The notes beneath the pieces were generated by a model. That model saw only the letters and a program-made list of their open reading frames with translations, was not told where the DNA came from and made no database searches. Below are positions 13,773 to 27,703 of a stretch of DNA of 32,000 bases, piece after piece (position 1 is the first letter of the stretch; every line of letters begins with the position of its first letter). The stretch comes from Opitutales bacterium (GTDB lineage: Bacteria > Verrucomicrobiota > Verrucomicrobiia > Opitutales > UBA2995): NCBI GenBank assembly GCA_965204545.1, contig CBDBFA010000003.1, forward strand, positions 2,658,357 through 2,690,356. Reading direction: 5' to 3'. The position numbers were made by a program, and so were the translations under genes.

Positions 13773-13809
13773 CTCTCGCAAAGCCGCCAAGAAGCAAAGG
13801 ACGCAAAGA
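13773..13809 (+). repeat. TIR-L of GxxExxY cassette (CTCTCGCAAAG/CGCCAAG box)
   Basis: See the cassette entry. The same box family occurs at 1043, 1432(rc), 3762, 22024(rc, degenerate), 22182(rc), 24102, 24294 and 25757. Confidence 0.9.
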
Positions 13810-14193
13810 ATGGATGAGAATTCAATTGGTAAGGTAGTTGTGGATGCGACTATTGCAGTGCATCGTGAGGTTGGTCCGGGATTGTTGGAGACCGTTTACG
13901 AATTGGTTCTGCTGGACGAACTGCAAAACCGGGGGTTGGTTGCTAAGCGCCAAGTACCCATCCCTATCCACATCCGTGGAATTCAATTCGATGAAGCATT
14001 CCGCGCTGACATCATAGTCGAAAACAAGGTCATTTTAGAATTGAAGTGCGTCGAGAAGACCAGCCCTGCACATAAGAAGCAACTTCTGACCTATTTAAAG
14101 CTCAGCGGAATGAAACTAGGGTATCTATTAAATTTTGCAGAAGCGATGATGAAGGACGGAATTACTCGGACCGTAAATGGGCTGCCTGAATAA
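13810..14193 (+). CDS. GxxExxY protein (PD-(D/E)XK nuclease-fold, TIGR04256-type)
   Basis: 127 aa. The name-giving motif G-LL-E-TV-Y occurs in GPGLLETVYE, and a PD-(D/E)XK-like RADIIVENKVILELK core follows. The gene is visibly AT-richer than its neighbours (by eye). Confidence 0.85.
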   Translation: MDENSIGKVVVDATIAVHREVGPGLLETVYELVLLDELQNRGLVAKRQVPIPIHIRGIQFDEAFRADIIVENKVILELKCVEKTSPAHKKQLLTYLKLSGMKLGYLLNFAEAMMKDGITRTVNGLPE

Positions 14194-14198
14194 TAGAA

Positions 14199-14235
14199 TC
14201 TTTGCGAACTTTGCCTCTTGGCGGCTTGGCGAGAG
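14199..14235 (-). repeat. TIR-R of GxxExxY cassette
   Basis: Its outer 19 nt (reverse complement CTCTCGCCAAGCCGCCAAG) are identical to 1043-1061 and to the reverse complement of 1446-1464. Confidence 0.9.
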
Positions 14236-16837: not shown

Positions 16838-19243
16838 ATGAAACGCATTTTTTTTCTCGCCGCTTTGTTACTGTTTTCAGGTCCTGTGTCCAGGGCTGAG
16901 ACGGTGGCTCTATGGTTGTTTGACGAGCAGGAAGGCCTTTACCCCAGTTGTCCGCTCTCGGATGCCACCCCCCGAGGCCTGCACCTGATTCTGGGGCGAG
17001 GTGGATCCATCGTGCCGGGGAAGTTTGGCGGGGCTCTTGCCGGGGTCGAGCCGAAGGATTGGGATCCGGTTTACGAACCCTCAAGTGAGGAAACCTACAT
17101 CCGCTTCGGACTGAAGGCTCCGGAACTCCAACCGGGTCGCACGGTGGAACCTTTGACCTGGTTCAATAACCGCTTTGCCGCCCTGTTCACCAATGGGAAC
17201 GGCCACTTGCGGCGGCTCGAGTTTGAAAATGCCACCCGGACACCCCTTAATCTCGGGCCGGAGGACTGGACGGTAGAATTCTGGTTGCAGCTCGACGGAA
17301 AGTCCAATGGGGAGGGAGTGGTATTCGAAATTGGCAGCGGACCACGGGGAGAAAATGATCGGGTGACCCGGCTTTCGGTCATACCGGAGAAGAATTTGCT
17401 CCGTTTCCATAACCATACAGGTAGTGCTACGGTGGAATTTCGCTCCAAGGAAGCTATGGCAAAGGGTTGGAATCACTATGCCCTCACCCATGGCAAAGGC
17501 CGGCTGATCTGGTATCTCAACGGGGAAGCGGTGGCGGAAGCAACGGCCCGGGTGAAGGCGCTGCCCTTTGGGGAAGAGGCCTACTTTACCGTGGCCCGGG
17601 ACGGACTTTGGAACCGACCCCTAACCGCCGCAATCGATGAATTGCGCTTTTCCGACAGTGTCGATTATACCGGGTCTTTTGCTCTTCCCGACAGTTACTC
17701 GCGCCTGCACCGGGCAGGCCGGAAGCCTTATGCCTTGAAGAAGGGAGGGGAACTCCTCTATCCGGGAAACAAAGCTCCTTCCGGAGTGGTGGAAATGGGG
17801 ACCCGCAAGCATCTCTTTCTCGATGACGTCCTTCTGGCCGAGAATGAGGGGGTGCGGCTGATCCCGCATCCGGCCCGATTGGAAGAAATTGTCCTGGATA
17901 GGGGAATCGGTTGGTCCACAGTGATCGAGGGTGAAGACGGACTCATCCGGCTTTACGGTGAAGGCGCGGGTGGCGTCGCCGTTTGGACCTCGCGGGATGG
18001 ACTTCATTTCGAAGCCCCGGATTTGGGAAGTGGCCGGGCCAACCAGGTCATTCCCGGACCGGCCAAAGCCGGTTCCGTTATCATCGATCCGAATGGTCCG
18101 CCCGAGGAACGGTGGAAAGCGCTGGTAGGGTTGCACGACCGGGGAGGCTGGTATATCTGGACGTCACCCGACGGGTGGTCTTTCCAACGCAGTGAAACGG
18201 CCGCGCTTCCCTTCTGGCCCGGGTCGGCTTCGACCCTGTATTACGATGACCAGCGGCAAGTGTATCTGGGGCATCATCGGTCCGATTACGGTTCGACTCC
18301 CTCCGGGAAGACCGAGCGGTATTTTGTGCGGACGGAAGTCACGGACCTTTTCGGGGCTTGGGAATTTGAGCCGACGACGCGGGAAAAGGCATTGCGAATC
18401 CACCGGGACCGGCCCCTGAAAGTGGAGCAGTGGGATCCCTGGTGGTTGGACAATGGGCCGTTGGCCCCTCCGGGATTCGGTATCGAGTTTCCCATCGCCA
18501 TGGGCCCGGATCCGGATCTGGATCCGGTGGCGACCGATCTCTACAACACCCGGGCCATAAAATACCCATGGGCTGAAGACACCTACCTGGCCTTTCCTCT
18601 GTGGTTTTTCCATTACCATGGAGACGGACCGCCCACTCGGCAGATACTGGCCCACCCCAGCCGGGAAATGGGTACCGGCATGGTGGAACCGCAGTTGGCG
18701 GTCAGCCGCGATGGATTGAAATGGAAACGGTATCCGCGGCCGGCCTACCTGCCCATCGGAGACCATAAGGGTTTTCCGGTGAGGCGGCCTTATCTGGCCC
18801 ATGGCATGGTCAGGCGGGGAAATGAAATTTTCCAGTATTCCTACACGCGAGCCTCCTATCACGATGCCTGGACCGATACCGCGCCCAGCCCGGTTACCCA
18901 TCGGCTGACCCAGCGATTGGACGGGTTTGTTTCCCTGCGCACCCCATATACCGGAGGCAGCCTCACCACTTTGCCCCTTACCTTTACAGGAAACCGTTTG
19001 GTTTTGAACATCGACACCGGGGCCGCTGGTTACGCCCAGGTGGGTATCCTCGATGAAGGAGGAATCGCCCTACCGGGTTACGCATTGGAGGATTGTATCT
19101 ACATCAATACCAATTCGGTAGCCCACACCGTGGAGTGGTTGGAAAAGGGCACGGACCTCACCGCCCTGGCTGGAAAAACGGTTCGGCTGGTTTTCCGCAT
19201 GCGGGGCACGGATCTCTACGCCATGCAATTTTTGGAGGATTAG
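16838..19243 (+). CDS. Secreted LamG/concanavalin-like domain + Asp-box beta-propeller + C-terminal beta-sandwich protein (paralog 1; candidate glycoside hydrolase of unassigned family)
   Basis: 801 aa with signal MKRIFFLAALLLFSGPVSRA. The LamG-type region has WTVEFWL...GEGVVFEIGSGPRGEND...IDELRFS. S-x-D-G-x-x-W/F boxes are present (TSRDGLHFE, TSPDGWSFQ, VSRDGLKWK), as is IIDPNGPPE. The C-terminal sandwich reads QRLDGFVS...LTFTGNRLVLNIDT...VRLVFRMRGTDLYAMQF. Confidence 0.6.
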   Translation: MKRIFFLAALLLFSGPVSRAETVALWLFDEQEGLYPSCPLSDATPRGLHLILGRGGSIVPGKFGGALAGVEPKDWDPVYEPSSEETYIRFGLKAPELQPGRTVEPLTWFNNRFAALFTNGNGHLRRLEFENATRTPLNLGPEDWTVEFWLQLDGKSNGEGVVFEIGSGPRGENDRVTRLSVIPEKNLLRFHNHTGSATVEFRSKEAMAKGWNHYALTHGKGRLIWYLNGEAVAEATARVKALPFGEEAYFTVARDGLWNRPLTAAIDELRFSDSVDYTGSFALPDSYSRLHRAGRKPYALKKGGELLYPGNKAPSGVVEMGTRKHLFLDDVLLAENEGVRLIPHPARLEEIVLDRGIGWSTVIEGEDGLIRLYGEGAGGVAVWTSRDGLHFEAPDLGSGRANQVIPGPAKAGSVIIDPNGPPEERWKALVGLHDRGGWYIWTSPDGWSFQRSETAALPFWPGSASTLYYDDQRQVYLGHHRSDYGSTPSGKTERYFVRTEVTDLFGAWEFEPTTREKALRIHRDRPLKVEQWDPWWLDNGPLAPPGFGIEFPIAMGPDPDLDPVATDLYNTRAIKYPWAEDTYLAFPLWFFHYHGDGPPTRQILAHPSREMGTGMVEPQLAVSRDGLKWKRYPRPAYLPIGDHKGFPVRRPYLAHGMVRRGNEIFQYSYTRASYHDAWTDTAPSPVTHRLTQRLDGFVSLRTPYTGGSLTTLPLTFTGNRLVLNIDTGAAGYAQVGILDEGGIALPGYALEDCIYINTNSVAHTVEWLEKGTDLTALAGKTVRLVFRMRGTDLYAMQFLED

Positions 19244-19306
19244 GCACAAAGGCACAAAGGCACAAAGGCACAAAGGCACAAAGGCACAAAGGCACAAAGG
19301 CACAAA
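19243..19306 (+). repeat. 8-bp microsatellite (GGCACAAA)x8
   Basis: Eight perfect units. The first G is the last base of the TAG stop (19241-19243) of paralog 1. The array abuts the GTG of the four-helix-bundle remnant. Confidence 0.95.
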
Positions 19307-19360
19307 GTGAGCGGTGTTAGAGCATATCAAGATTTGATCGTTTGGCGAGAGTCCATTCCA
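19307..19360 (+). pseudogene. Truncated N-terminal remnant of a four-helix-bundle (23S rRNA IVS-protein family, TIGR02436-like) gene
   Basis: GTG AGC GGT GTT AGA GCA TAT CAA GAT TTG ATC GTT TGG CGA GAG translates to VSGVRAYQDLIVWRES. This matches the family's characteristic N-terminal Y(R/Q)DL(I/L)VWQK motif. No helical body follows. It is about 85% identical over ~52 bp to 24242-24292 (hand count). Confidence 0.55.
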
Positions 19361-19430: not shown

Positions 19431-21941
19431 ATGAAGCATCATTTATTTAAAGTTTATGGGATCGCTTTGGGCCTGATTCATGGGGCAATTTGTTTTGTAT
19501 CCGCGGCGGAGACGGTGGCCTTGTGGCTTTTCGACGAGCCGGAGTGGCTGTATCCGAGCCACACTGTCGACTCCAGCGCCGGACTGGATGCGCCCATGGT
19601 CCTGGGGCTGGGGGGAACCTTGACTGCAGGTAAGTGGGGCCGCGCTTTGTCGACCGTTCCCCATCCCCCGGTAGAGATTCCCGAGACGGGTGAGGCCACC
19701 GCCTCTCTCACGCCATTGCCCATACCACCGGGTCGAACTCAGGTTCCTCTCACCTGGCACAACGCCGACTTTGCCGCGCTGATGACGGGGGGGGAACGCC
19801 ACCTGCGCAAACAGGTAGGTTTTGTCAATCCTACCGAGACCGATCTGAACCTGGGGGATTTCAATTGGACGGTGGAGTTTTGGCTGAAGGGGAATCCAAT
19901 CCGCCAGGGAGAGGGAGTCGTCTTCGAAATCGGGACGGGACCGAGAGGGGAGAACGACACCTATACCCGACTGACGGTCGATACAACTGAGGGCAGCTTT
20001 GGATTCCTAAATGCCTCATCCGGAAACGAGGTTTCCTTGGGGGATTCAACCAAGGCATTCCAGGACGGGCAGTGGCATCATTTCGTCCTGACGTTTGATT
20101 CCAGCCGGGATGTTCTGACCCTATTCTCCGATGGCGAGCGAGTGGATCGTAAGAAAATCGAACTGAAGCGACTGCCAAGCGGCGACGAATCTTACATGAG
20201 CGTAGGGCGAAATGGGTTCTGGGGGGATCCATTGCCGGGCATTTTGGACGAGTTGCGCTTTTCCAGGGGATTGGTTTACGAAGATGGATTCCAACCGCCG
20301 GGAAGCTTTGCTCCTTCCGTTCCCGAAGTTTCCCTGATGAAGGGACCGTCCCTTCGCTTCGGACCGGATTCTCCAAAATCCGGCAGGGTGGATCTCGGTG
20401 GATCAAAGCACGTTTTCTGGGACGATTCCCTCTTTGAATCCAGCCGGGGAATCACCTTCAATACCCATCAGCCCAAATACATAACCCGGGTGGTTGAAGG
20501 ATTACTGGGACAGGTCCGCAAGCACCTGACCGTTATTGAGGATGAGCAGGGAATAATCCGCATCTACCATGGGGTGGCGGACGACTACCTGGGCATTCGC
20601 ATTTCCCATGATGGAGTGAACTTTGTAGCTCCGGACACCGGTTACCATTGGAAGGGCGACAAGAATATCGTCATTCCCGAAGCGGCGCCACTGGGACGTC
20701 CCATTATCGATCCGAATGGACCGCCCGAGCACCGGTGGAAGTATGTCAGCGGCCTGGAAGGCCGGGGCGTTTACCTCTACACCTCCCCGGACGGTTGGAA
20801 ATGGCAGCGCCAGCGCACTGCGGTTCTACCTTTCCGTTCCGGCTCCCAATCCAGTTTGTTCTACGACGATCAGCGGCAATTGTATGTGGGTTATCACCGC
20901 ACCGGACATCCCATGACCCCGGGAGGGGGAACGAGCCGGCAGTTCGTCCTTTCCGAAACGGCCGATATCTACTCCCCATGGCCGGTCGATCCTCTTACCC
21001 AGAAGGAAGCACTCGAGATCGCGCAAACGCGACCGCTTCGATTGCCCATTCCCTGGTGGATGGACAACGGACCCCTTACGCCGGGCGACTTCAGCGTGGA
21101 AATGCCAACTGTATTCGCTCCGGACCTTTCAGTCGATCCCGGGGGGAGCGGGATCTATGTTCCCAAGGGCATGAAGTACCCTTGGGCCGAGGATGCTTAC
21201 ATCTCTTTTCCGGCCATGTATTATGATTACGAAGAGCCACATCAGCCGTTGAACCGGCGCATTCTTTATCACCCATCCTATGAGAAAGGTTCGGGAACCA
21301 TGGAATCGCATGTGGCGATAAGCCGCGACGGAGTCAAATGGAAGCGGTTCATGCGGCCGGCCTACATACCGATGGATCGCTATCAGGACCGCGACATCCA
21401 TCAGATTTACATGTCCGAGGGAATGATTCGGCGCGGCGATGAAATCTGGCAGTACTTCTACGGGCAGGAGGAGTATCATTCCCCGGCCGTCCGCAACAAG
21501 GCCGGCAACGGAATTTATCGGGCGGTGCAGCGTCTGGATGGTTTTGTCTCGGCCGACACTCCTTACGACCAGGAAGTAACCGTGGTGACCCGTCCTCTAA
21601 CCTTTGATGGGAACCGGCTGGAGCTGAATATCGATACCCGCGCCCTCGGGTATTGCCTGGTTGGAATCCTGGATGAAGAAGGAAAGACCATTCCCGGATA
21701 TGAGGCCGAGAACTGCATCTGGATCAACGGCAACTTTATCCGGCATGAGGTGGAATGGTTGAACCCTGAGGCCGACCTCCGCGGGCTGATCAGGTTGAGG
21801 GCCAATCAAATGCGGCATTCCACCCTCAGCCTCGAGGGAATAACCAAGTCCGACTTGGGACACCTTGCCGGAAAAACCATTCGCCTGCAGTTCAAGATGC
21901 GTGGAGCCAGCCTCTACGCCATGCAGTTTGTGGAAGATTAA
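19431..21941 (+). CDS. Secreted LamG-like + Asp-box beta-propeller + beta-sandwich protein (paralog 2)
   Basis: 836 aa, collinear with 16838-19243. Shared blocks: AETVALWLFDE, WTVEFWL, GEGVVFEIGTGPRGEND, DELRFS, IIDPNGPPEHRWK, TSPDGWKWQR, YDDQRQLY, PWWMDNGPL, KYPWAEDAY, SRDGVKWKR, QRLDGFVS, LYAMQFVED. It carries an extra ~25-aa insertion near the C-terminus. Confidence 0.6.
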   Translation: MKHHLFKVYGIALGLIHGAICFVSAAETVALWLFDEPEWLYPSHTVDSSAGLDAPMVLGLGGTLTAGKWGRALSTVPHPPVEIPETGEATASLTPLPIPPGRTQVPLTWHNADFAALMTGGERHLRKQVGFVNPTETDLNLGDFNWTVEFWLKGNPIRQGEGVVFEIGTGPRGENDTYTRLTVDTTEGSFGFLNASSGNEVSLGDSTKAFQDGQWHHFVLTFDSSRDVLTLFSDGERVDRKKIELKRLPSGDESYMSVGRNGFWGDPLPGILDELRFSRGLVYEDGFQPPGSFAPSVPEVSLMKGPSLRFGPDSPKSGRVDLGGSKHVFWDDSLFESSRGITFNTHQPKYITRVVEGLLGQVRKHLTVIEDEQGIIRIYHGVADDYLGIRISHDGVNFVAPDTGYHWKGDKNIVIPEAAPLGRPIIDPNGPPEHRWKYVSGLEGRGVYLYTSPDGWKWQRQRTAVLPFRSGSQSSLFYDDQRQLYVGYHRTGHPMTPGGGTSRQFVLSETADIYSPWPVDPLTQKEALEIAQTRPLRLPIPWWMDNGPLTPGDFSVEMPTVFAPDLSVDPGGSGIYVPKGMKYPWAEDAYISFPAMYYDYEEPHQPLNRRILYHPSYEKGSGTMESHVAISRDGVKWKRFMRPAYIPMDRYQDRDIHQIYMSEGMIRRGDEIWQYFYGQEEYHSPAVRNKAGNGIYRAVQRLDGFVSADTPYDQEVTVVTRPLTFDGNRLELNIDTRALGYCLVGILDEEGKTIPGYEAENCIWINGNFIRHEVEWLNPEADLRGLIRLRANQMRHSTLSLEGITKSDLGHLAGKTIRLQFKMRGASLYAMQFVED

Positions 21942-22313: not shown

Positions 22314-24073
22314 TTCTCTTTAGGCGCTTCGGAATCCTGGCGGTCTTGACGCTTCTTTTGCTTGGCCCGGCAGCTTATCCGCAGGGGAGCAAAGCGGGTG
22401 ATTCCAAGCCGCTGACGGTAGAGGAAATAAAAGCCATTGCGGAGAATTACGGGCAATTCGCTCCCGAGGATGCCTGGGTGGAGGATCCGGATTTCGCCTA
22501 TTACGGCAGCGAGAACGAATGGACCCGGCGGCAGTTTTCCGCGGTGAGGGCGGAAATGCTCTACAAGCGCCGGGGGCAACGGCAGATGTTGAAGATTCTG
22601 GAAGGGGACAAGGACGAAGCCATCGCTTTGGCCGAGTTTCGCCTGGATGAGGATGCCACCGACGCGGAGTCCTGGTTCATCCTGACGGTGGCCCATTCGG
22701 TAAGGGGGGAAGTCGGGAAAGCCATGGAGTACATGCGCAAGGCTTTGCAGAACGGTATGGAGTTTTCCCGCTTCCTGGCCGGTCCCCGGGATCTGTTAAA
22801 ATCCCTTACGGACTCGCCTGAATTTCAGGCTGTGGCCGAGGAAAAGGCAGTTGGGTTGATCCATGGGCCCATGTTGGGGTCGGTAACCAGTGAAGGAGCC
22901 CGTTTCTGGTTCAGGACCATGGAAGAGGATACTGTGGAGGTCCGCTGTTACGACCAAAGCGGGCGCTTGGCCGGCAAAGCCTCGGATCGAGCCGAGGCCG
23001 GGGCGGATTACACGGTTGTAGTGACGGTAGAAGCCCTGCAATCCGACACGCAGTACCGCTATGATGTGCTGGTGAACGGAACTCCTGTGCTGAGGGATGC
23101 CGGGCTCACCTTCCGCACCTACCCGGAGAGGGGCAGTTCGGGTTCATTCAAGATCGGTGTAGGGGGATGTGCCGGCTACACACCCAGGTATGAATACATG
23201 TGGTCCACCTTGGCGGCGCGGAATTTGGACGCCATGTTGTTGCTGGGAGACAACGTCTACATCAACATGCCGGAAATGCCGGGAACCTTTCACGGCTACA
23301 CTTACTACCGCCGGCAATCACAATCGGATTTCCGAAAACTTGGGCATACCACTGCCCTATACGCCATCTGGGACGATCACGATTCGGCCACGGACGATGT
23401 CTGGATGGGGCCGTATAGGGACAGGCCGGTCTGGAAGCAGCCCATGGTCGAAGTATTTCAGCGCAACTGGGTAAATCCGGGAGGAGGCGGGCCGGGTTGG
23501 CCGGGTTGTTGGTTCCAATTCTCCCTGGGTGACGTGGACATCTTCATGTTGGATGGCCGAACCTACCGGACCAATCCGCACAAGGAGGAAAAGACCATGC
23601 TGGGCCCCGTTCAGAAAGACTGGTTGTTGTCGGGTCTGAAAGCCTCCAAAGCTACCTTCAAGGTTATCGCCTCGCCGGTGGCCTGGGCTTCTGCAGCCAA
23701 ACCCGGTAGCAAAGATACCTGGAACGGGTTTATCGAGGAACGGGAAGAAATCTTCCGTTACCTCGGCCGGAACCGGATCGAGGGAGTGCTCCTCTTATCC
23801 GGGGACCGGCATCGAACCGACTTCTGGATAAACCCTCGGGAGGGGGATTATCCCCTCTACGAAATGAGCAGTTCCCGGCTGACCAACATCCATACGGCCG
23901 ACCTGATGCCTGGGGCTGTCTTCGGCTACAACGAGAAGCCCTCTTTCGGGATCCTGAATTTCCAAACCGGGCTGGATGACCCCGAAATGAGGTTCGAGAT
24001 TGTCAGCATCGACGACGAACTCATTTATGCGCATACGGTCAAGCTGAGCGAATTATCCTACCCGGATCCGTGA
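22289..24073 (+). CDS. PhoD-like metallophosphatase with Tat-type signal and ~190-aa helical N-terminal extension
   Basis: PhoD-type core: GPMLGSVTSEGARFWFRT, LLLGDNVYI, AIWDDHDSATDD, LLSGDRHRTDF. The N-terminus FRRFGILAVLTLLLLGPAA fits a twin-arginine signal. The start is uncertain among GTG 22289, 22298 and 22307, all of which lie inside the reverse CACAGAG repeat. Confidence 0.75.
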   Translation: MSSVFSVVILFRRFGILAVLTLLLLGPAAYPQGSKAGDSKPLTVEEIKAIAENYGQFAPEDAWVEDPDFAYYGSENEWTRRQFSAVRAEMLYKRRGQRQMLKILEGDKDEAIALAEFRLDEDATDAESWFILTVAHSVRGEVGKAMEYMRKALQNGMEFSRFLAGPRDLLKSLTDSPEFQAVAEEKAVGLIHGPMLGSVTSEGARFWFRTMEEDTVEVRCYDQSGRLAGKASDRAEAGADYTVVVTVEALQSDTQYRYDVLVNGTPVLRDAGLTFRTYPERGSSGSFKIGVGGCAGYTPRYEYMWSTLAARNLDAMLLLGDNVYINMPEMPGTFHGYTYYRRQSQSDFRKLGHTTALYAIWDDHDSATDDVWMGPYRDRPVWKQPMVEVFQRNWVNPGGGGPGWPGCWFQFSLGDVDIFMLDGRTYRTNPHKEEKTMLGPVQKDWLLSGLKASKATFKVIASPVAWASAAKPGSKDTWNGFIEEREEIFRYLGRNRIEGVLLLSGDRHRTDFWINPREGDYPLYEMSSSRLTNIHTADLMPGAVFGYNEKPSFGILNFQTGLDDPEMRFEIVSIDDELIYAHTVKLSELSYPDP

Positions 24074-24193
24074 ATGTGATCGTGATAGAATTAAGAAAAG
24101 CCTCTCGCAAAGCTCGCCAAGAACGCTGAGAAAAGGCACAGAGGCGCCGGGGGCGCCAATTAAGAATTAGGAATTAGGAATGGGGAATGAAAA

Positions 24194-24241
24194 GGCACAA
24201 AGGCACAAAGGCACAAAGGCACAAAGGCACAAAGGCACAAA
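24194..24241 (+). repeat. 8-bp microsatellite (GGCACAAA)x6
   Basis: Six perfect units that directly abut GTG 24242. Confidence 0.95.
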
Positions 24242-24292
24242 GTGAGCGGGTTCAGAGCATATCGAAATTTAATTGTTTGGCAAAAGGGAAGG
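24242..24292 (+). pseudogene. Truncated N-terminal remnant of a four-helix-bundle (TIGR02436-like) gene
   Basis: It translates to VSGFRAYRNLIVWQKGR, the family's N-terminal motif. The sequence then runs into a CTCTCGCAAAG box and hairpin repeats instead of the helical body. Confidence 0.55.
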
Positions 24293-24313
24293 ACTCTCGC
24301 AAAGAGCACGCAA

Positions 24314-24383
24314 GTAGGAGCGGCTTTAAGCCGCGATCCCATGAAACAGCCTCACCGCAATCGCGGGATAAACCCGCTCCTAC
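24314..24383 (-). repeat. 70-bp double-hairpin element (TGTAGGAGCGG.. type), copy 1
   Basis: GTAGGAGCGGCTTTAAGCCGCGAT ...spacer... ATCGCGGGATAAACCCGCTCCTAC. Its reverse complement aligns along its full length with 25852-25920. Strand is assigned relative to copy 2. Confidence 0.85.
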
Positions 24384-24474
24384 AGCTTGATACCACTACT
24401 CCCTTCTCCCCATTCTTAATTCTTCATTCCTAATTCCTAATTGGCGCCCACGGCGCCTCTTATCCGTGGTTTAT

Positions 24475-25650
24475 TCAGCTTAAGGCCTTTTCCAGGTTTT
24501 GCCAATTGGCTATCAGGTGCCCTCTGCTTTGGTGAAGTGTGTCGTCACCCGAATAAATCAGGAGGGTCTTGTCGTTCTTTCCATGATCATGGCGCTTCCA
24601 GTAATCGAGACCGGCAAAGAAGGAAGCGTTCAAGGTCTGCCCTGATTTAACTTCGATGGCCAGGCGCATTGGCCCTTGATCAAGCAGAAAGTCTATTTCG
24701 TTTTTGTGACTATCTCTCCAAAAAAACAAGTTCGAAGGCTCTGCGCGGTTGTATTGACACTTGAGGATTTCCGAAAAGACCAGGGTTTCAAAGAGGTAGC
24801 CGCGAAGCGGGTGGTGCTCCAACTGATATGGTTCCCTCATGCCAAGCAACCAGGATGCCAAACCCGTATCCACAAAGTACAGCTTGGGCCTCTTGACCAA
24901 GCGCTTGTTAAAATTGCTATGGTAGGGTTTCAACAGATGGATAACGTAGCTGGCCTCCAGCACCGATAGCCAACTCTTGGCCGTTTTGTAATCAATCGAG
25001 GCCTCATTACAGAGCGCCCCAATATCGAGGATTCTACCCGTTCGTCCGGCGCAAAGGCGCAGAAATGTCTGAAAGCTCGATAGATCCCGAATGTTAATCA
25101 ATTGCCTGACGTCACGCTCCAGATAGGTTTGGACATAGGCCCCAAACCAGAGACGCGGATTGGCCCCATGGATCGCGGTGGAGGGGTAAAGGCCTTTCCA
25201 TAGGATCTCATTGGCATTAACCGGCTTTTCCAACTCGCCCTTCGTTTCGCCAAAACTCAATGGCAGAAGCTTCAGGTAACCCGCCCTCCCCGCCAATGAT
25301 TGGGAGATCTTTTGGTCGAGTAGAAATTGATGGGAACCCGTCAGGATGAACCTTCCATTCCATCGTTTCCTATCTACGATTCCTTGCAAATAGGAGAAAA
25401 GCTCGGGCGCTTGTTGCACCTCGTCGATGACCGCGCCTTCGCCTAGAGCAGACAGGAATCCTCTAGGGTCGGAGTGGGCTGCCTCGCGAAGGTCCGGATC
25501 CTCCATGGAAACGTACGGTTTCTCCGGAAACGCAGTTTGAGCAAGCGTGGTCTTTCCGGATTGACGAGGCCCGGTGATGGCAACGACTGGAAACGTTTGA
25601 GCAAGCTCTTCACACGCGGTTTGAGCTATTCTCGGAACAATTTTGTGCAT
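24475..25650 (-). CDS. AAA+ ATPase with C-terminal DUF4143-type domain (AAA_14/DUF4143 family)
   Basis: Walker A is GPRQSGKTTLAQ, Walker B-like is GAVIDEVQ, and the length and layout are typical of the family. I prefer ATG 25650 (MHKIVPRIAQ...) over TTG 25680. The gene is visibly AT-richer than the sugar genes (by eye). Confidence 0.75.
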   Translation of the reverse strand: MHKIVPRIAQTACEELAQTFPVVAITGPRQSGKTTLAQTAFPEKPYVSMEDPDLREAAHSDPRGFLSALGEGAVIDEVQQAPELFSYLQGIVDRKRWNGRFILTGSHQFLLDQKISQSLAGRAGYLKLLPLSFGETKGELEKPVNANEILWKGLYPSTAIHGANPRLWFGAYVQTYLERDVRQLINIRDLSSFQTFLRLCAGRTGRILDIGALCNEASIDYKTAKSWLSVLEASYVIHLLKPYHSNFNKRLVKRPKLYFVDTGLASWLLGMREPYQLEHHPLRGYLFETLVFSEILKCQYNRAEPSNLFFWRDSHKNEIDFLLDQGPMRLAIEVKSGQTLNASFFAGLDYWKRHDHGKNDKTLLIYSGDDTLHQSRGHLIANWQNLEKALS

Positions 25651-25690: not shown

Positions 25691-26022
25691 AAAAGGATGA
25701 AGGCTGAAGGAGGAAGGCTAAAAATAAATCGTGATGGTGATCGAAAGGAGAATTGACTCTCGCAAAGCTCGCTAAGAACGCTAAGAAGTGCCGGGCGCGC
25801 GAATTACGAGATTTCATTCTCCAACATCAATTGATAACCTATTACAAAACTGTAGGAGGGGGTTTATCCCCCGATTGCAGTGAGGCTATTTAAAAGATCG
25901 GGGGATAAACCCCCTCCTACAGTTCTCCAAATCACCATCCCATGAACATTTTCTCCTTCCTCCCCCATTCCTAATTCCTGATTGGCGCCCCCGGCGTCTC
26001 TCATCTGTGTAATCCGTGGTCG
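25691..26022. repeat. Intergenic mosaic J
   Basis: Modules: AAGGATGAAGGCTGAAGGAGGAAGGCTAAA 25691-25724; GATC-type block 25727-25748; CTCTCGCAAAGCTCGCTAAGAACGCTAAGAAG 25757-25788; double hairpin 25850-25922; reverse TAGGAAT+GGCGCCcccGGCGTC 25962-25998; reverse CACGGAT 26002-26022. Confidence 0.9.
25850..25922 (+). repeat. 73-bp double-hairpin element, copy 2 (perfect 26-bp arms)
   Basis: CTGTAGGAGGGGGTTTATCCCCCGAT (25850-25875) and ATCGGGGGATAAACCCCCTCCTACAG (25897-25922) are exact reverse complements. The spacer is 21 nt, TGCAGTGAGGCTATTTAAAAG. Confidence 0.95.
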
Positions 26023-26051: not shown

Positions 26052-26188
26052 GTGAAAAAGGGGTCAGCCCTAGTATTGAAGTATTAACCATTGATGAGCA
26101 TGGAAAAGAAAGTTAATCCCAGTAGCGTAGAAATGGGGCGAATCAGAACCGTTCAATACTTCAATACTAGGGCTGACCCCTTTTTCAC
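26052..26188. repeat. 137-bp element with perfect 34-bp terminal inverted repeats (MITE-like or large hairpin)
   Basis: 26052-26085 GTGAAAAAGGGGTCAGCCCTAGTATTGAAGTATT is the exact reverse complement of 26155-26188. The spacer is 69 bp. The right arm ends 5 nt before ATG 26194. Confidence 0.95.
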
Positions 26189-26193
26189 CGTTC

Positions 26194-27384
26194 ATGATCA
26201 GGATTGAATCCATACGGGCTCGAACCATTCCGCTGCAGGCCGATTACCGTAATGCCACGGTTAGTTTTGCCGGGCTGACGGGATCGGTTGTGGCCATTCT
26301 GGCCAGAGGGGATGATGGATCCGTTGAAGTCGGCTATGGATTCGGGTCCATAGGCCGTTACGCCCAAACTGAAATGATCCGGGAGCGGTTTGGGCCTCGC
26401 CTGCTGCGGGCGGACCCTTCCGCCTACAACTGGGATGGATTCCCGGATCCCGTTCGGTTGAATCGGCTCATGCGCCGCGACGAAAAGCAAGGGGGTCACG
26501 GGGAGCGATCGGTTGCTATCGGAGCGATCGACATGGCGGCCTGGGATCTCTATGCCAAACTCGAGCGGAAGCCGCTCTTTCTCTGTCTGGCGGAGCGCTT
26601 TAACGGGGGCCGATCCGATCCCTCGGTCGAGGTCTATGCGGCGGGGGGATACTATTATCGTGAGGGAGGACGGGCCCGGTTGCGACGGGAGTTGGAGGGT
26701 TATCTGGAAAGGGGATTTCGCTCGGTCAAGATCAAGATCGGCGGCGCATCCTTGAAGGAGGATCTGCAGCGGATAGAAACCGCCATCGCCACGGTGGGTT
26801 CTCCGGGTGACGTGGCGGTAGATGCGAACGGCCGCTTCAGCGGGGAAGAAGCGCTGGAATGGGGAAGAGCCATGGAGGATTTGAACCTGCGTTGGTATGA
26901 GGAGCCGGTAGATCCATTGGATTTCGAGGCCTACAACCAGTTGGGTTCAGCTTACGGGCCGCCCCTGGCAACCGGGGAGAACCTCTTCTCCCTGCAGGAG
27001 GTAAAAAACCTGATTCACTACGCCGGGTTGCGTCCGGATCGGGATATTCTGCAGATGGATCCGGGTTTGGCTTATGGGGTCTCGGAATACCTGGAAATCA
27101 TCCAAGCCTTGGAAAGCGCCGGTTGGTCGCGGAGAAGCTGTTTCCCGCACGGAGGGAATTTGTTCAACCTTCACATCGCCCAAGGCCTGCAGATCGGGGG
27201 AACGGAAGTCTATCCCGAAGTTTTTGCCCCTCTCGGAGGATTTGGAGAGTCGGTTGAAATCGAGAACGGACGGGCCTCCGCTCCCGAGGTAACGGGTATC
27301 GGTTGGGAAACCAAGCCCGATTTGATGGATTGTTTCACAGAATTGAGGGCGATGGAGTGGGGGAGTGATGGAATTGTGGAGTGA
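26194..27384 (+). CDS. Enolase-superfamily (mandelate racemase/muconate lactonizing enzyme family) acid-sugar dehydratase, cytoplasmic
   Basis: 396 aa. K-x-K in SVKIKIGG, and metal ligand pattern VDANG / YEEP / ATGEN; PHGG follows. The last ~10 codons (MEWGSDGIVE) and the TGA lie in the GGAGTGATGG repeat. Confidence 0.75.
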   Translation: MIRIESIRARTIPLQADYRNATVSFAGLTGSVVAILARGDDGSVEVGYGFGSIGRYAQTEMIRERFGPRLLRADPSAYNWDGFPDPVRLNRLMRRDEKQGGHGERSVAIGAIDMAAWDLYAKLERKPLFLCLAERFNGGRSDPSVEVYAAGGYYYREGGRARLRRELEGYLERGFRSVKIKIGGASLKEDLQRIETAIATVGSPGDVAVDANGRFSGEEALEWGRAMEDLNLRWYEEPVDPLDFEAYNQLGSAYGPPLATGENLFSLQEVKNLIHYAGLRPDRDILQMDPGLAYGVSEYLEIIQALESAGWSRRSCFPHGGNLFNLHIAQGLQIGGTEVYPEVFAPLGGFGESVEIENGRASAPEVTGIGWETKPDLMDCFTELRAMEWGSDGIVE

Positions 27385-27530
27385 TGGAATGGGCGAGATG
27401 AGTTTCAGAGTTTAATCGTGATCGTGATCTTGATCGTGATCGAAAATAACGGAGGGGGGACATTCCTGTCCCCCAATTTTTCATTTAAAATAGGCACGCT
27501 GGGCTTTGGAGTGGAACTGCTTTGCAGTTC
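27351..27530. repeat. Intergenic mosaic K
   Basis: Modules: GGAGTGATGG-type run 27351-27393; GATC block 27414-27447; AACGGAGG+hairpin GGGGGACA-ttcc-TGTCCCCC+CAATTT 27447-27481; 32-bp repeat copy 2 at 27499-27530 (reverse complement of 1101-1132). Confidence 0.9.
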
Positions 27531-27703
27531 AATGCATGGCGGATGTAGGAAAGCTTATGGAAGAAGGGGTCAAGACGTAAAAAGTTATGCCATACTCCTT
27601 GGAGTACGCAAGGCATGACCCCGACGACCCAGGTGAGACATAATATTGCTGGCACGGATGCGAATGTAATGGTTATATTCGAGATTCAAAAGCCGTTTAA
27701 ACT

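Follow-up and report, generated by a model that had tools for sequence, protein, structure and literature searches.

The window analysed here, with a GC content of 57%, is a 32,000-nucleotide stretch (32 kb being the coverage of this genome in the analysis) of a marine Opitutales (Verrucomicrobiota) genome. Pfam placed in the window genes for an SSF transporter, a sulfatase, two Laminin_G_3 proteins, PhoD and enolase-superfamily enzymes. Two of its intergenic spacers, one between the PhoD and AAA-ATPase genes and the other between the two Laminin_G_3 genes, carry a perfect tandem array of the octamer GGCACAAA, followed by the truncated 5' end of a PF05635 four-helix-bundle (4HB) gene. Runs containing the window sequence were mostly sponge, coral and marine samples, and the nearest relative, a metagenome-assembled genome (MAG) named 'Opitutales bacterium jk18x7bins.13' (L085), was 91% identical to the window over 7.8 kb. 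No rRNA was found in the window with Rfam, which matched no family in the window or in 24000-24600.

At the first site, 6.5 units of (GGCACAAA)n occupy 24191-24242 (period 8, 100% matches in Tandem Repeats Finder; this and all features below lie on the forward strand unless stated otherwise) and adjoin GTG 24242, from which the frame reads VSGFRAYRNLIVWQKGRTLAKS... and stays homologous to the 4HB gene for 16 codons (VSGFRAYRNLIVWQKG, 24242-24290). The 4HB frame stops in the following segment (24291-24313), which consists of the junction word (G)GACTCTCGCAAAG and a linker; this word also opens the left arm of the GxxExxY type of cassette described below. At the second site, (GGCACAAA)8 at 19243-19306 (called at 19242-19307, period 8, 8.2 copies, 100% matches) begins at the TAG stop of the upstream Laminin_G_3 gene and adjoins GTG 19307, and the frame, VSGVRAYQDLIVWRES..., opening as VSGVRAYQDLIVWRE, is retained for 13 codons (VSGVRAYQDLIVW) plus one base (19307-19346), after which CCATTCC-type words continue as far as ATG 19431 of the next gene. 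Both translations share VSG.RAY..LIVW. A sequence-only reading, made from the letters of this DNA and a list of its open reading frames (ORFs), had described both array-head arrangements as they were found here, with the two remnants about 85% identical over ~52 bp; the measured identity outside the array was lower, 33/40, 36/46 and 37/52 positions, corresponding to 82% across the 40 nt that are homologous and 71% across all 52. It had also called the gene 'beheaded', which is the wrong way round, as the head is kept and the body and tail are lost. In run X1, which derives from the window's own organism, k-mer depth over the array at 24191-24242 was ~7200 as against ~8 for unique DNA.

The first spacer further contains the inverted repeat that had been reported, with 24140-24174 matching the reverse complement of 24426-24460 at 33/35 positions and the extended arms matching at 43/50. 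The left arm (24140-24189) comprises the GC hairpin GGCGCCGGGGGCGCC, AATTAAG/AATTAGG words and GGAATG words, and the right arm (24411-24460, reverse strand) comprises CCTAATT-type words and then the GGCGCCCACGGCGCC hairpin. The double hairpin noted earlier was located at 24314-24383 and is a REPIN-like doublet in which two inverted 24-nt units, both containing a small palindrome of their own, lie on either side of a 22-nt spacer; 24314-24337 pairs with 24360-24383 at 88% complementarity, with a predicted RNA fold of -36.8 kcal/mol (z = -5.8). A second doublet lies at 25852-25920, and doublet depth was 160-800 as against 8 (20-100 times that of unique DNA); the doublet at 24314-24383 is 96% conserved relative to L085. 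The PhoD and AAA-ATPase genes converge on the region 24132-24468, the whole of which is predicted to form a single long hairpin (-134.5 kcal/mol, z = -7.3).

The 35-bp repeat, which had been taken as the boundary of the cassette, is instead a separate word module. It is built of a GGCGCC-NNN-GGCGCC hairpin and AATTAGG words, occurs at least seven times in the window (further copies at about 1185, 1397, 3637, 7105 and 25967) and has a k-mer depth of ~2300-2800 as against 8 (~300 times unique DNA), equivalent to hundreds of copies per genome. At locus L014 and in L138, an Opitutales MAG fragment of 20 kb whose gene order follows that of the window (synteny of SSF, sulfatase, Laminin_G_3, PhoD, MR_MLE), inverted pairs of the module bracket intact genes of another 4HB subtype (MKVENPIQAKSYAF...; z = 24). 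At the orthologous locus of L085, a 7-unit array, the stump, the junction word, the hairpin and the right arm are all present, and the 51 nt corresponding to 24140-24190, and with them the left arm, are missing. With this segment removed the window also has 7 array units, equal to L085, and the slippage polymorphism that the sequence-only reading had proposed was not seen at the 24191 locus. The 51-nt indel is spanned by an 11-nt direct repeat, GAAAAGGCACA, with its copies 59 nt apart. Because the same composite (hairpin, AATTAGG, GGAATGAAAA, array and head) recurs in a third genome at L138:9965-10140, the comparison mildly favours a loss in the L085 MAG rather than a gain in the window.

An intact array-led gene and its truncated copies

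L138, which was reached through the lookup of a single protein returned for a stump query, carries at 17043-17414 an intact 4HB gene of 123 aa (MSGVRTYRDLIVWQKGID..., MSGVRTYRDLIVWQKGIDFVTKIYGLTRNYPASEVYGLTSQIRR..., MSGVRTYRDLIVWQKGIDFVTKIYGLTRNYPASEVYGLTSQIRRCSVSIPSNVAEGYGRR...) with PF05635 and bAvd on record, the bAvd match of this protein and of its metagenome relatives being weak. By blastn, window positions 24243-24290 matched nt 2-49 of this gene at 87.5% identity (E 1.7e-10, i.e. ~2e-10), and positions 19308-19346 matched nt 2-40 at 87.2% (E 1e-6), while tblastn gave E 0.006 for the stump at 24242; the E-values of these short matches refer to a search space of ~1.2 Mb. Since they share 87% nucleotide identity with an intact PF05635 gene, the remnants descend from a member of this family and, judged by that homology, are genuine 5' fragments of a four-helix-bundle gene, as had been proposed. 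The intact gene is preceded by (GGCACAAA)23 (L138:16859-17042), which extends from the TAG of the upstream exbB to the ATG and begins with GATTAG joined to GCACAAAGG, the same arrangement as at window position 19243. Every unit carries AAGG, and the final one sets this motif 6 nt 5' of the start codon. The array is therefore the native 5' flank of this 4HB lineage, in agreement with the earlier proposal; a metagenome contig (L121) likewise holds an intact 118-aa 4HB gene between GGCACAAA-type arms (AAAGGCACATAGGTGCAGAGGCACAAAG on one side and the same sequence inverted on the other; z = 15 relative to shuffled sequence). The further expectation that intact genes would be both array-led and bounded by the 35-bp repeat held in its first part for the L138 gene, and in its second part the module brackets a different 4HB subtype. 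Downstream of the intact gene lie short inverted TTTGTGCC words and then GC-hairpin/CCTAATT modules. We also observed that two intact 4HB cassettes of different subtypes (L138:15860-16237 and 17043-17414) flank exbB, one of them between exbB and exbD, and these probably lie inside a transcription unit, as an intervening sequence (IVS) lies inside rRNA. In run X1, contigs matching the L014 stump read on into CTGAAGTGTACGGCTTAACTTCACAAA, i.e. ...AEVYGLTSQIR, the next conserved 4HB motif, and thus a longer copy, probably intact, exists in the genome of the window organism.

Altogether, 11 stumps were recovered from three Opitutales genomes (window twice; L085, L040, L090 and L094 twice; L014, L019 and L138b), and arrays of 5-13 units precede all of them. 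A scan for (GGCACAAA)3 across one genome per species detected the array-plus-GTGAGCGG unit 7 more times, in two Opitutales MAGs; as loci were recovered through the array or the head, such counts are biased. The stumps span only nt 2 to 40-97 of the gene and end in six junction classes. In the window, the copy at 19346 breaks at nt 40, where TTGGC is joined to the repeat word TTGGCGAGAG (TTGGC to GAGAG), and the copy at ~24290 breaks at ~nt 54, where GAC is joined to TCTCGCAAAG; the latter junction, (GAC)TCTCGC[A/C]AAG, is shared by the L085 ortholog, L040, L094:83 and L094:6853. The remaining breaks lie at ~nt 50 (L090), ~nt 57 (L019), ~nt 80 (L138:10064) and nt 97 (L014). We read the ~nt 54 junction as a single truncation that afterwards spread to at least four loci. 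Every junction passes into another mosaic word, frequently sharing a few bases with it, which suggests that the gene recombined illegitimately with the repeats around it, or that a template switch took place between the two, and five of the stumps are capped by the GxxExxY-type arm word CTCTCGCAAAG. Elsewhere in the Opitutales DNA compared, blastn detected no piece of the gene from nt 100-372.

The longest stump (L014:940) retains 31 codons (VSGVGTYRDLIVWQKGIDLVTKIYGLSRNFP) and matched PF05635 positions 1-25 (E 2.4e-4) and NF008911 (E 3e-6), although its 21.7 bits lie below the PF05635 cut-off of 33.8. A sequence search of the PDB with these 31 aa returned no match, and homologous-protein searches with stump-based queries returned 1 and 9 candidates, all short and without the parent gene among them. 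The nearest database relatives of the stump query (P0122-P0130) are short PF05635 products of 49-73 aa from other lineages, several of which end near SNIAEGYGR; truncated 4HB genes may be common generally, or this may be an artefact of candidate selection in the search.

Compared with its L085 ortholog, the head at 24242 shows the lowest conservation of any segment in the spacer (40/46, 87%), while the array and its flanking word block are 100% identical and the hairpin and right arm 96%. Changes among the stumps fall almost evenly on the three codon positions (11/10/14), the L040 stump contains an in-frame stop, and the L094b and L138b stumps have lost their start codons. The low head identity, the flat distribution over codon positions, the stop codon and the lost starts show that coding selection is absent, and the stumps, by these comparisons, code for nothing any longer. 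A translated mini-ORF was rejected for the stumps.

Probable decay of a cassette and the competing explanations

We consider both window sites to be the decayed left halves of a small-gene cassette, with a probability of about 0.8. In the intact cassette, a long (GGCACAAA)n array would fill the distance between the upstream stop codon and the start codon of a 123-aa PF05635 (S23p/Avd-like) ORF, after which would come TTTGTGCC words and GC-hairpin/CCTAATT modules, and the whole could fold into a stem around the ORF, as the 23S rRNA IVS does. In the window copies, the body and tail of the ORF would have been lost with a break 40-54 nt into the gene and the remainder joined to other repeat words, probably by deletion through recombination at word microhomologies; a truncated composite of array, ~54 nt of head and CTCTCGCAAAG arm would later have spread to at least four loci. 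The stem-forming words would persist nearly invariant and, at 24132-24468, fold into the long hairpin between the convergent genes, where they may act at the RNA level as an RNase III substrate or a 3'-end hairpin. The sequence-only reading had spoken of 'cassette graveyards'; both sites are indeed gene debris, but a tblastn panel of GxxExxY and six 4HB proteins detected none in the window beyond these two stumps. On the whole, its observation was confirmed and its interpretation partly supported.

Several findings weigh against this explanation. In the profile check that the sequence-only reading had suggested, the window remnants gave no Pfam or NCBIfam match even at E<=10, so that their assignment depends on nucleotide homology to longer relatives; with homology ending after 16 and 13 codons of what would be a complete ORF of ~110-130 aa, they are fragments rather than members of PF05635 or TIGR02436. 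An intact array-led copy was not recovered from the window's own genome, which yielded loose Logan contig ends only, and Logan contigs end inside repeats. The right-hand TTTGTGCC arm of the intact L138 gene has just 2-3 units, which would make the stem very asymmetric. That every stump follows an array is partly built in, the loci having been found through the array; conversely, a stump follows only 9/39 arrays of at least three units (genome-scan loci and window together). Lastly, heads persist and bodies and tails do not, an asymmetry that simple decay leaves to be accounted for.

An unlikely alternative is that array and head are kept as a functional element, whether as a leader peptide or translation-initiation region, as a protein-binding RNA platform or as the recognition end of a copying process. 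At least 40 nt of head are present in 11/11 copies, breakpoints cluster at nt 40-97 of 372 (for six classes a uniform model gives (97/372)^6, ~3e-4), one truncated composite occupies at least four loci, and the placement of AAGG 6 nt before the start and the complete conservation of the arrays relative to L085 would fit such a role. However, the head itself is the segment that has diverged most (87%), free of codon-position bias and in some copies interrupted by a stop or deprived of its start; the gene downstream of the 24242 stump is convergent, so the element cannot be its leader; and promoter and terminator consensus scans gave no signal exceeding shuffled background.

The inverted repeat raises another explanation, which we regard as improbable, namely that the 321-bp unit it bounds (24140-24460) is a miniature inverted-repeat transposable element (MITE) carrying array, stump and hairpin as cargo. 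Arms matching at 43/50, their membership in a family with hundreds of copies per genome, and whole-word indels between close relatives would all be expected of such an element. Yet the L085 ortholog has the right arm, hairpin, stump and array and lacks the left arm, and therefore the 321-bp unit did not arrive in one piece; moreover, no target-site duplication was observed (left flank AAAGGCAC, right flank TATCCGTG), and elsewhere the arms stand singly or with other partners, the interior not being repeated as a unit. With neither a duplication nor a repeated unit, a MITE with cargo was rejected.

It is very improbable that the octamer array serves as a phase-variation switch, with slippage moving the 4HB ORF into or out of frame with an upstream ATG (in GGAATGAAAAGG) and thereby switching its expression on or off. 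An 8-nt unit does shift the frame with each unit gained or lost, the 7 units of L138b bring the upstream ATG into frame with the stump (a gene called there as P0001, MKRHKGTKAQRHK...VSGVKAY), different loci carry anything from 5 to 23 units, and the comparable Coxiella heptamers differ between strains; but the intact L138 gene has its own ATG right after the array and no upstream GGAATG, unit count at the 24191 locus equals that of a relative at 91% identity, and the window ORFs are dead. Finally, the notion that the YxxLIVW likeness is coincidental and the post-array sequence merely more repeat words, to which the missing profile matches and the richness of the region in short words might lend some colour, has next to no chance of being right, given that the remnants are 87% identical in nucleotides to the start of an intact PF05635 gene led by the same array, that a 23-nt core lies at 4HB N-termini in 17/19 metagenome contigs, and that longer paralogous stumps have significant Pfam and NCBIfam matches; chance similarity was refuted by the intact array-led L138 gene and the blastn matches to it.

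Comparison with known systems

Among known systems, the cassette most resembles the 23S rRNA IVS (Coxiella burnetii, Leptospira and Xanthomonas-type S23p; PMC4990558), with which it shares the PF05635 family and an ORF within terminal inverted repeats that form a long stem. RNase III cleaves the 28-bp terminal stem in Coxiella, where a short tandem run of GACAGAT heptamers, two or three depending on the strain, lies just 5' of the S23p ATG (PMC4990558). Tandem repeats before the start are found here as well, (GGCACAAA)6.5, 8 and 23 adjoining start codons, and so are stem-forming terminal repeats (43/50; z = -7.3), though the left arm is absent in the L085 ortholog. Unlike the IVS, the Opitutales elements are located between protein-coding genes (exbB/exbD in L138; PhoD/AAA-ATPase and two Laminin_G_3 genes in the window) rather than in helix 25 or 45 of a 23S rRNA gene, have leaders of 6-23 octamers as against 2-3 heptamers, and draw their arms from shared dispersed words. 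The arrays also resemble the Xanthomonas (GGGAATC)n and Nostoc short tandemly repeated repetitive (STRR) sequences, which are perfect 7-8-nt intergenic arrays starting near the 3' end of the upstream ORF, often in inverted pairs that form stem-loops at conserved positions (PMC4692102). Unlike these, the Opitutales words are not G4-forming and the arrays belong, as leader or arm, to one particular small gene; the paper on the former makes no link to S23p or GxxExxY (PMC4692102). The doublets at 24314-24383 and 25852-25920 share with REPINs two inverted ~24-nt palindromic units, a short spacer and a high copy number (20-100 times unique depth; PMC3116915), but they form a sequence family with no relation to the REPs of Pseudomonas or E. 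coli, and the doublet is one component of a mosaic. No cognate RAYT (IS200/IS605-like) transposase came to light in the 32 kb, although no search aimed at it was made. The Avd protein of diversity-generating retroelements (PF22296 bAvd; PMC10053308) is similar in fold and superfamily, whereas the present genes are stand-alone multi-copy cassettes with no reverse transcriptase, template repeat or variable repeat nearby.

The protein families, the IVS concept, inverted-pair intergenic heptamer arrays and REPINs are thus already known, and full-text literature searches under the names of the protein families returned no paper on flanking repeats. What is new is an IVS-like 4HB cassette outside rRNA with an unusually long octamer leader, seen intact, truncated and re-spread. 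Of the multi-copy small genes of bacteria that still lack an explanation, those for PF05635 and GxxExxY proteins rank with the commonest, and for 30 years the label 'selfish' has been applied to the 23S IVS elements with, to our knowledge, no known way of spreading. An IVS-type element is now available outside rRNA in several stages, from an intact gene with a 23-unit leader through 11 stumps with six truncation points and a re-spread composite to presence/absence differences, and it offers a concrete system for studying cassette movement, decay, stem processing and the conservation of words beyond that of coding DNA. Part of an intergenic mosaic that had been opaque is accounted for as well, as is the occurrence of such genes at metagenome assembly breaks.

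Related cassettes and the repeat mosaic

The window also holds an intact cassette with a different gene. The GxxExxY (PDDEXK_3) cassette at 13773-14235 contains a gene of 127 aa (13810-14193) that belongs to PF13366 (E 6e-39, 133.4 bits against a cut-off of 22) and whose close homologues are named 'GxxExxY protein' in their sources. The gene is enclosed by 37-nt inverted arms made up of CTCTCGCAAAG/GCCAAG words, with 89% complementarity between the arms (z = 17). In the window this cassette separates the SSF gene from the sulfatase gene; the two overlap in L138 (1900-1960) and have no called cassette between them, a presence/absence polymorphism of a whole cassette. The sequence-only reading had assigned the GxxExxY and 4HB families to one repeat system. 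The two do share an architecture of inverted tandem-word arms and a vocabulary of words, with CTCTCGCAAAG on five 4HB stumps, but in the window their arm words differ.

The 23-nt degenerate remnant core ATATCRRRATTTRATYGTTTGGC matched 19 metagenome contigs, 17 of which encode Y[RQ][DN]LIVW at the N-terminus of a 4HB ORF; twelve of these 17 ORFs measure 121-151 aa, and all four submitted to Pfam were assigned to PF05635 (E 1e-36 to 1e-42). Inverted tandem-word arms around intact 4HB or GxxExxY genes were found in several lineages, besides L121 and the window PDDEXK_3 gene at L128 (z = 20), L014 (z = 24) and L010 (z = 12.8). GxxExxY homologues at 72-80% identity gave 5293 matches across phyla, and three unrelated GxxExxY contigs are flanked by the vocabulary of the window (TCTCGCAGAGACGCAAAG, GGCACAAAG and CACAGAG). 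GxxExxY loci of other phyla (L133-L137) have flanks with TCTCGCAGAGACGCAAAG / CTTGGCGTCTTGGCGAGAG, GGCACAAAG and CACAGAG; their upstream arm has GCAAAG at the place where the complement of the downstream arm has GCCAAG, so that an A.G mismatch recurs regularly along the stem. Perfect (GGCACAAA)n arrays with three or more units were present in MAGs of more than 20 phyla (loci L002-L113), including sphingomonads, Cytophagales, Desulfobacterales, Spirochaetes, Chloroflexus and Nitrospirota; 24 arrays had an inverted partner within 1.5 kb, mostly as short hairpins free of ORFs. At L064, inverted arrays enclose another truncated 4HB head, MIKTYRNLIVWQKSIAMVTD, and at L022:1340-1580 a cassette of the AATTAGG-armed 4HB subtype has decayed differently, by an internal deletion joining its start (ENPIQ) to VEEAIGGQSKKDF.

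Almost all spacers of the window start at a stop codon and form nested, imperfect palindromes from a small set of word types, namely GGCACAAA, CACAGAG, ATCGTG, AATTAGG, GGAATGG, CTCTCGCAAAG/GCCAAG, GC hairpins and REPIN-like doublets. Each large difference between L085 and the window amounts to the gain or loss, within a spacer, of whole words or array units. Part of this dense intergenic mosaic is debris of stem-flanked small-gene cassettes. A broader proposal, which we hold only tentatively and think less probable than its negation, is that 4HB and GxxExxY genes are carried as cargo by a single class of mobile cassettes, IVS-like and spread across phyla, with shared 7-9-nt arm words (GGCACAAA, CTCTCGCAAAG/GCCAAG, CACAGAG, AATTAGG), whose arms and copy-competent 'array plus 40-nt head' left end have multiplied in Opitutales to fill almost every spacer as nested palindromes, with words more constant than the neighbouring genes. 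If true, it would imply either a host-level function of the RNA or an active mechanism of copying or conversion that recognises the words.

Words and arrays around the first site (24074-24139, 24191-24241 and 24384-24460) are 96-100% identical to L085, as against 90-96% for the flanking coding DNA, which suggests that selection or gene conversion may act on the repeat words. The two Laminin_G_3 genes (16838-19243 and 19431-21941) are tandem paralogs, of which the syntenic L138 has only one, and their stops run straight into word arrays, TAG into GGCACAAA units and TAA into CCACAGAG units. Just upstream of the gene at 26194 lies a perfect 34-nt inverted repeat (26052-26085 / 26155-26188, 69-nt spacer), which is mostly absent in L085, 14-nt and 90-nt segments being confined to the window. 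A further dispersed family is represented by the 36-nt TGAACTGCAAAGCAGTTCCACTCCAAAGCCCAGTGT at 1100-1135 and 27496-27531, two inverted copies 26 kb apart with 97% identity.

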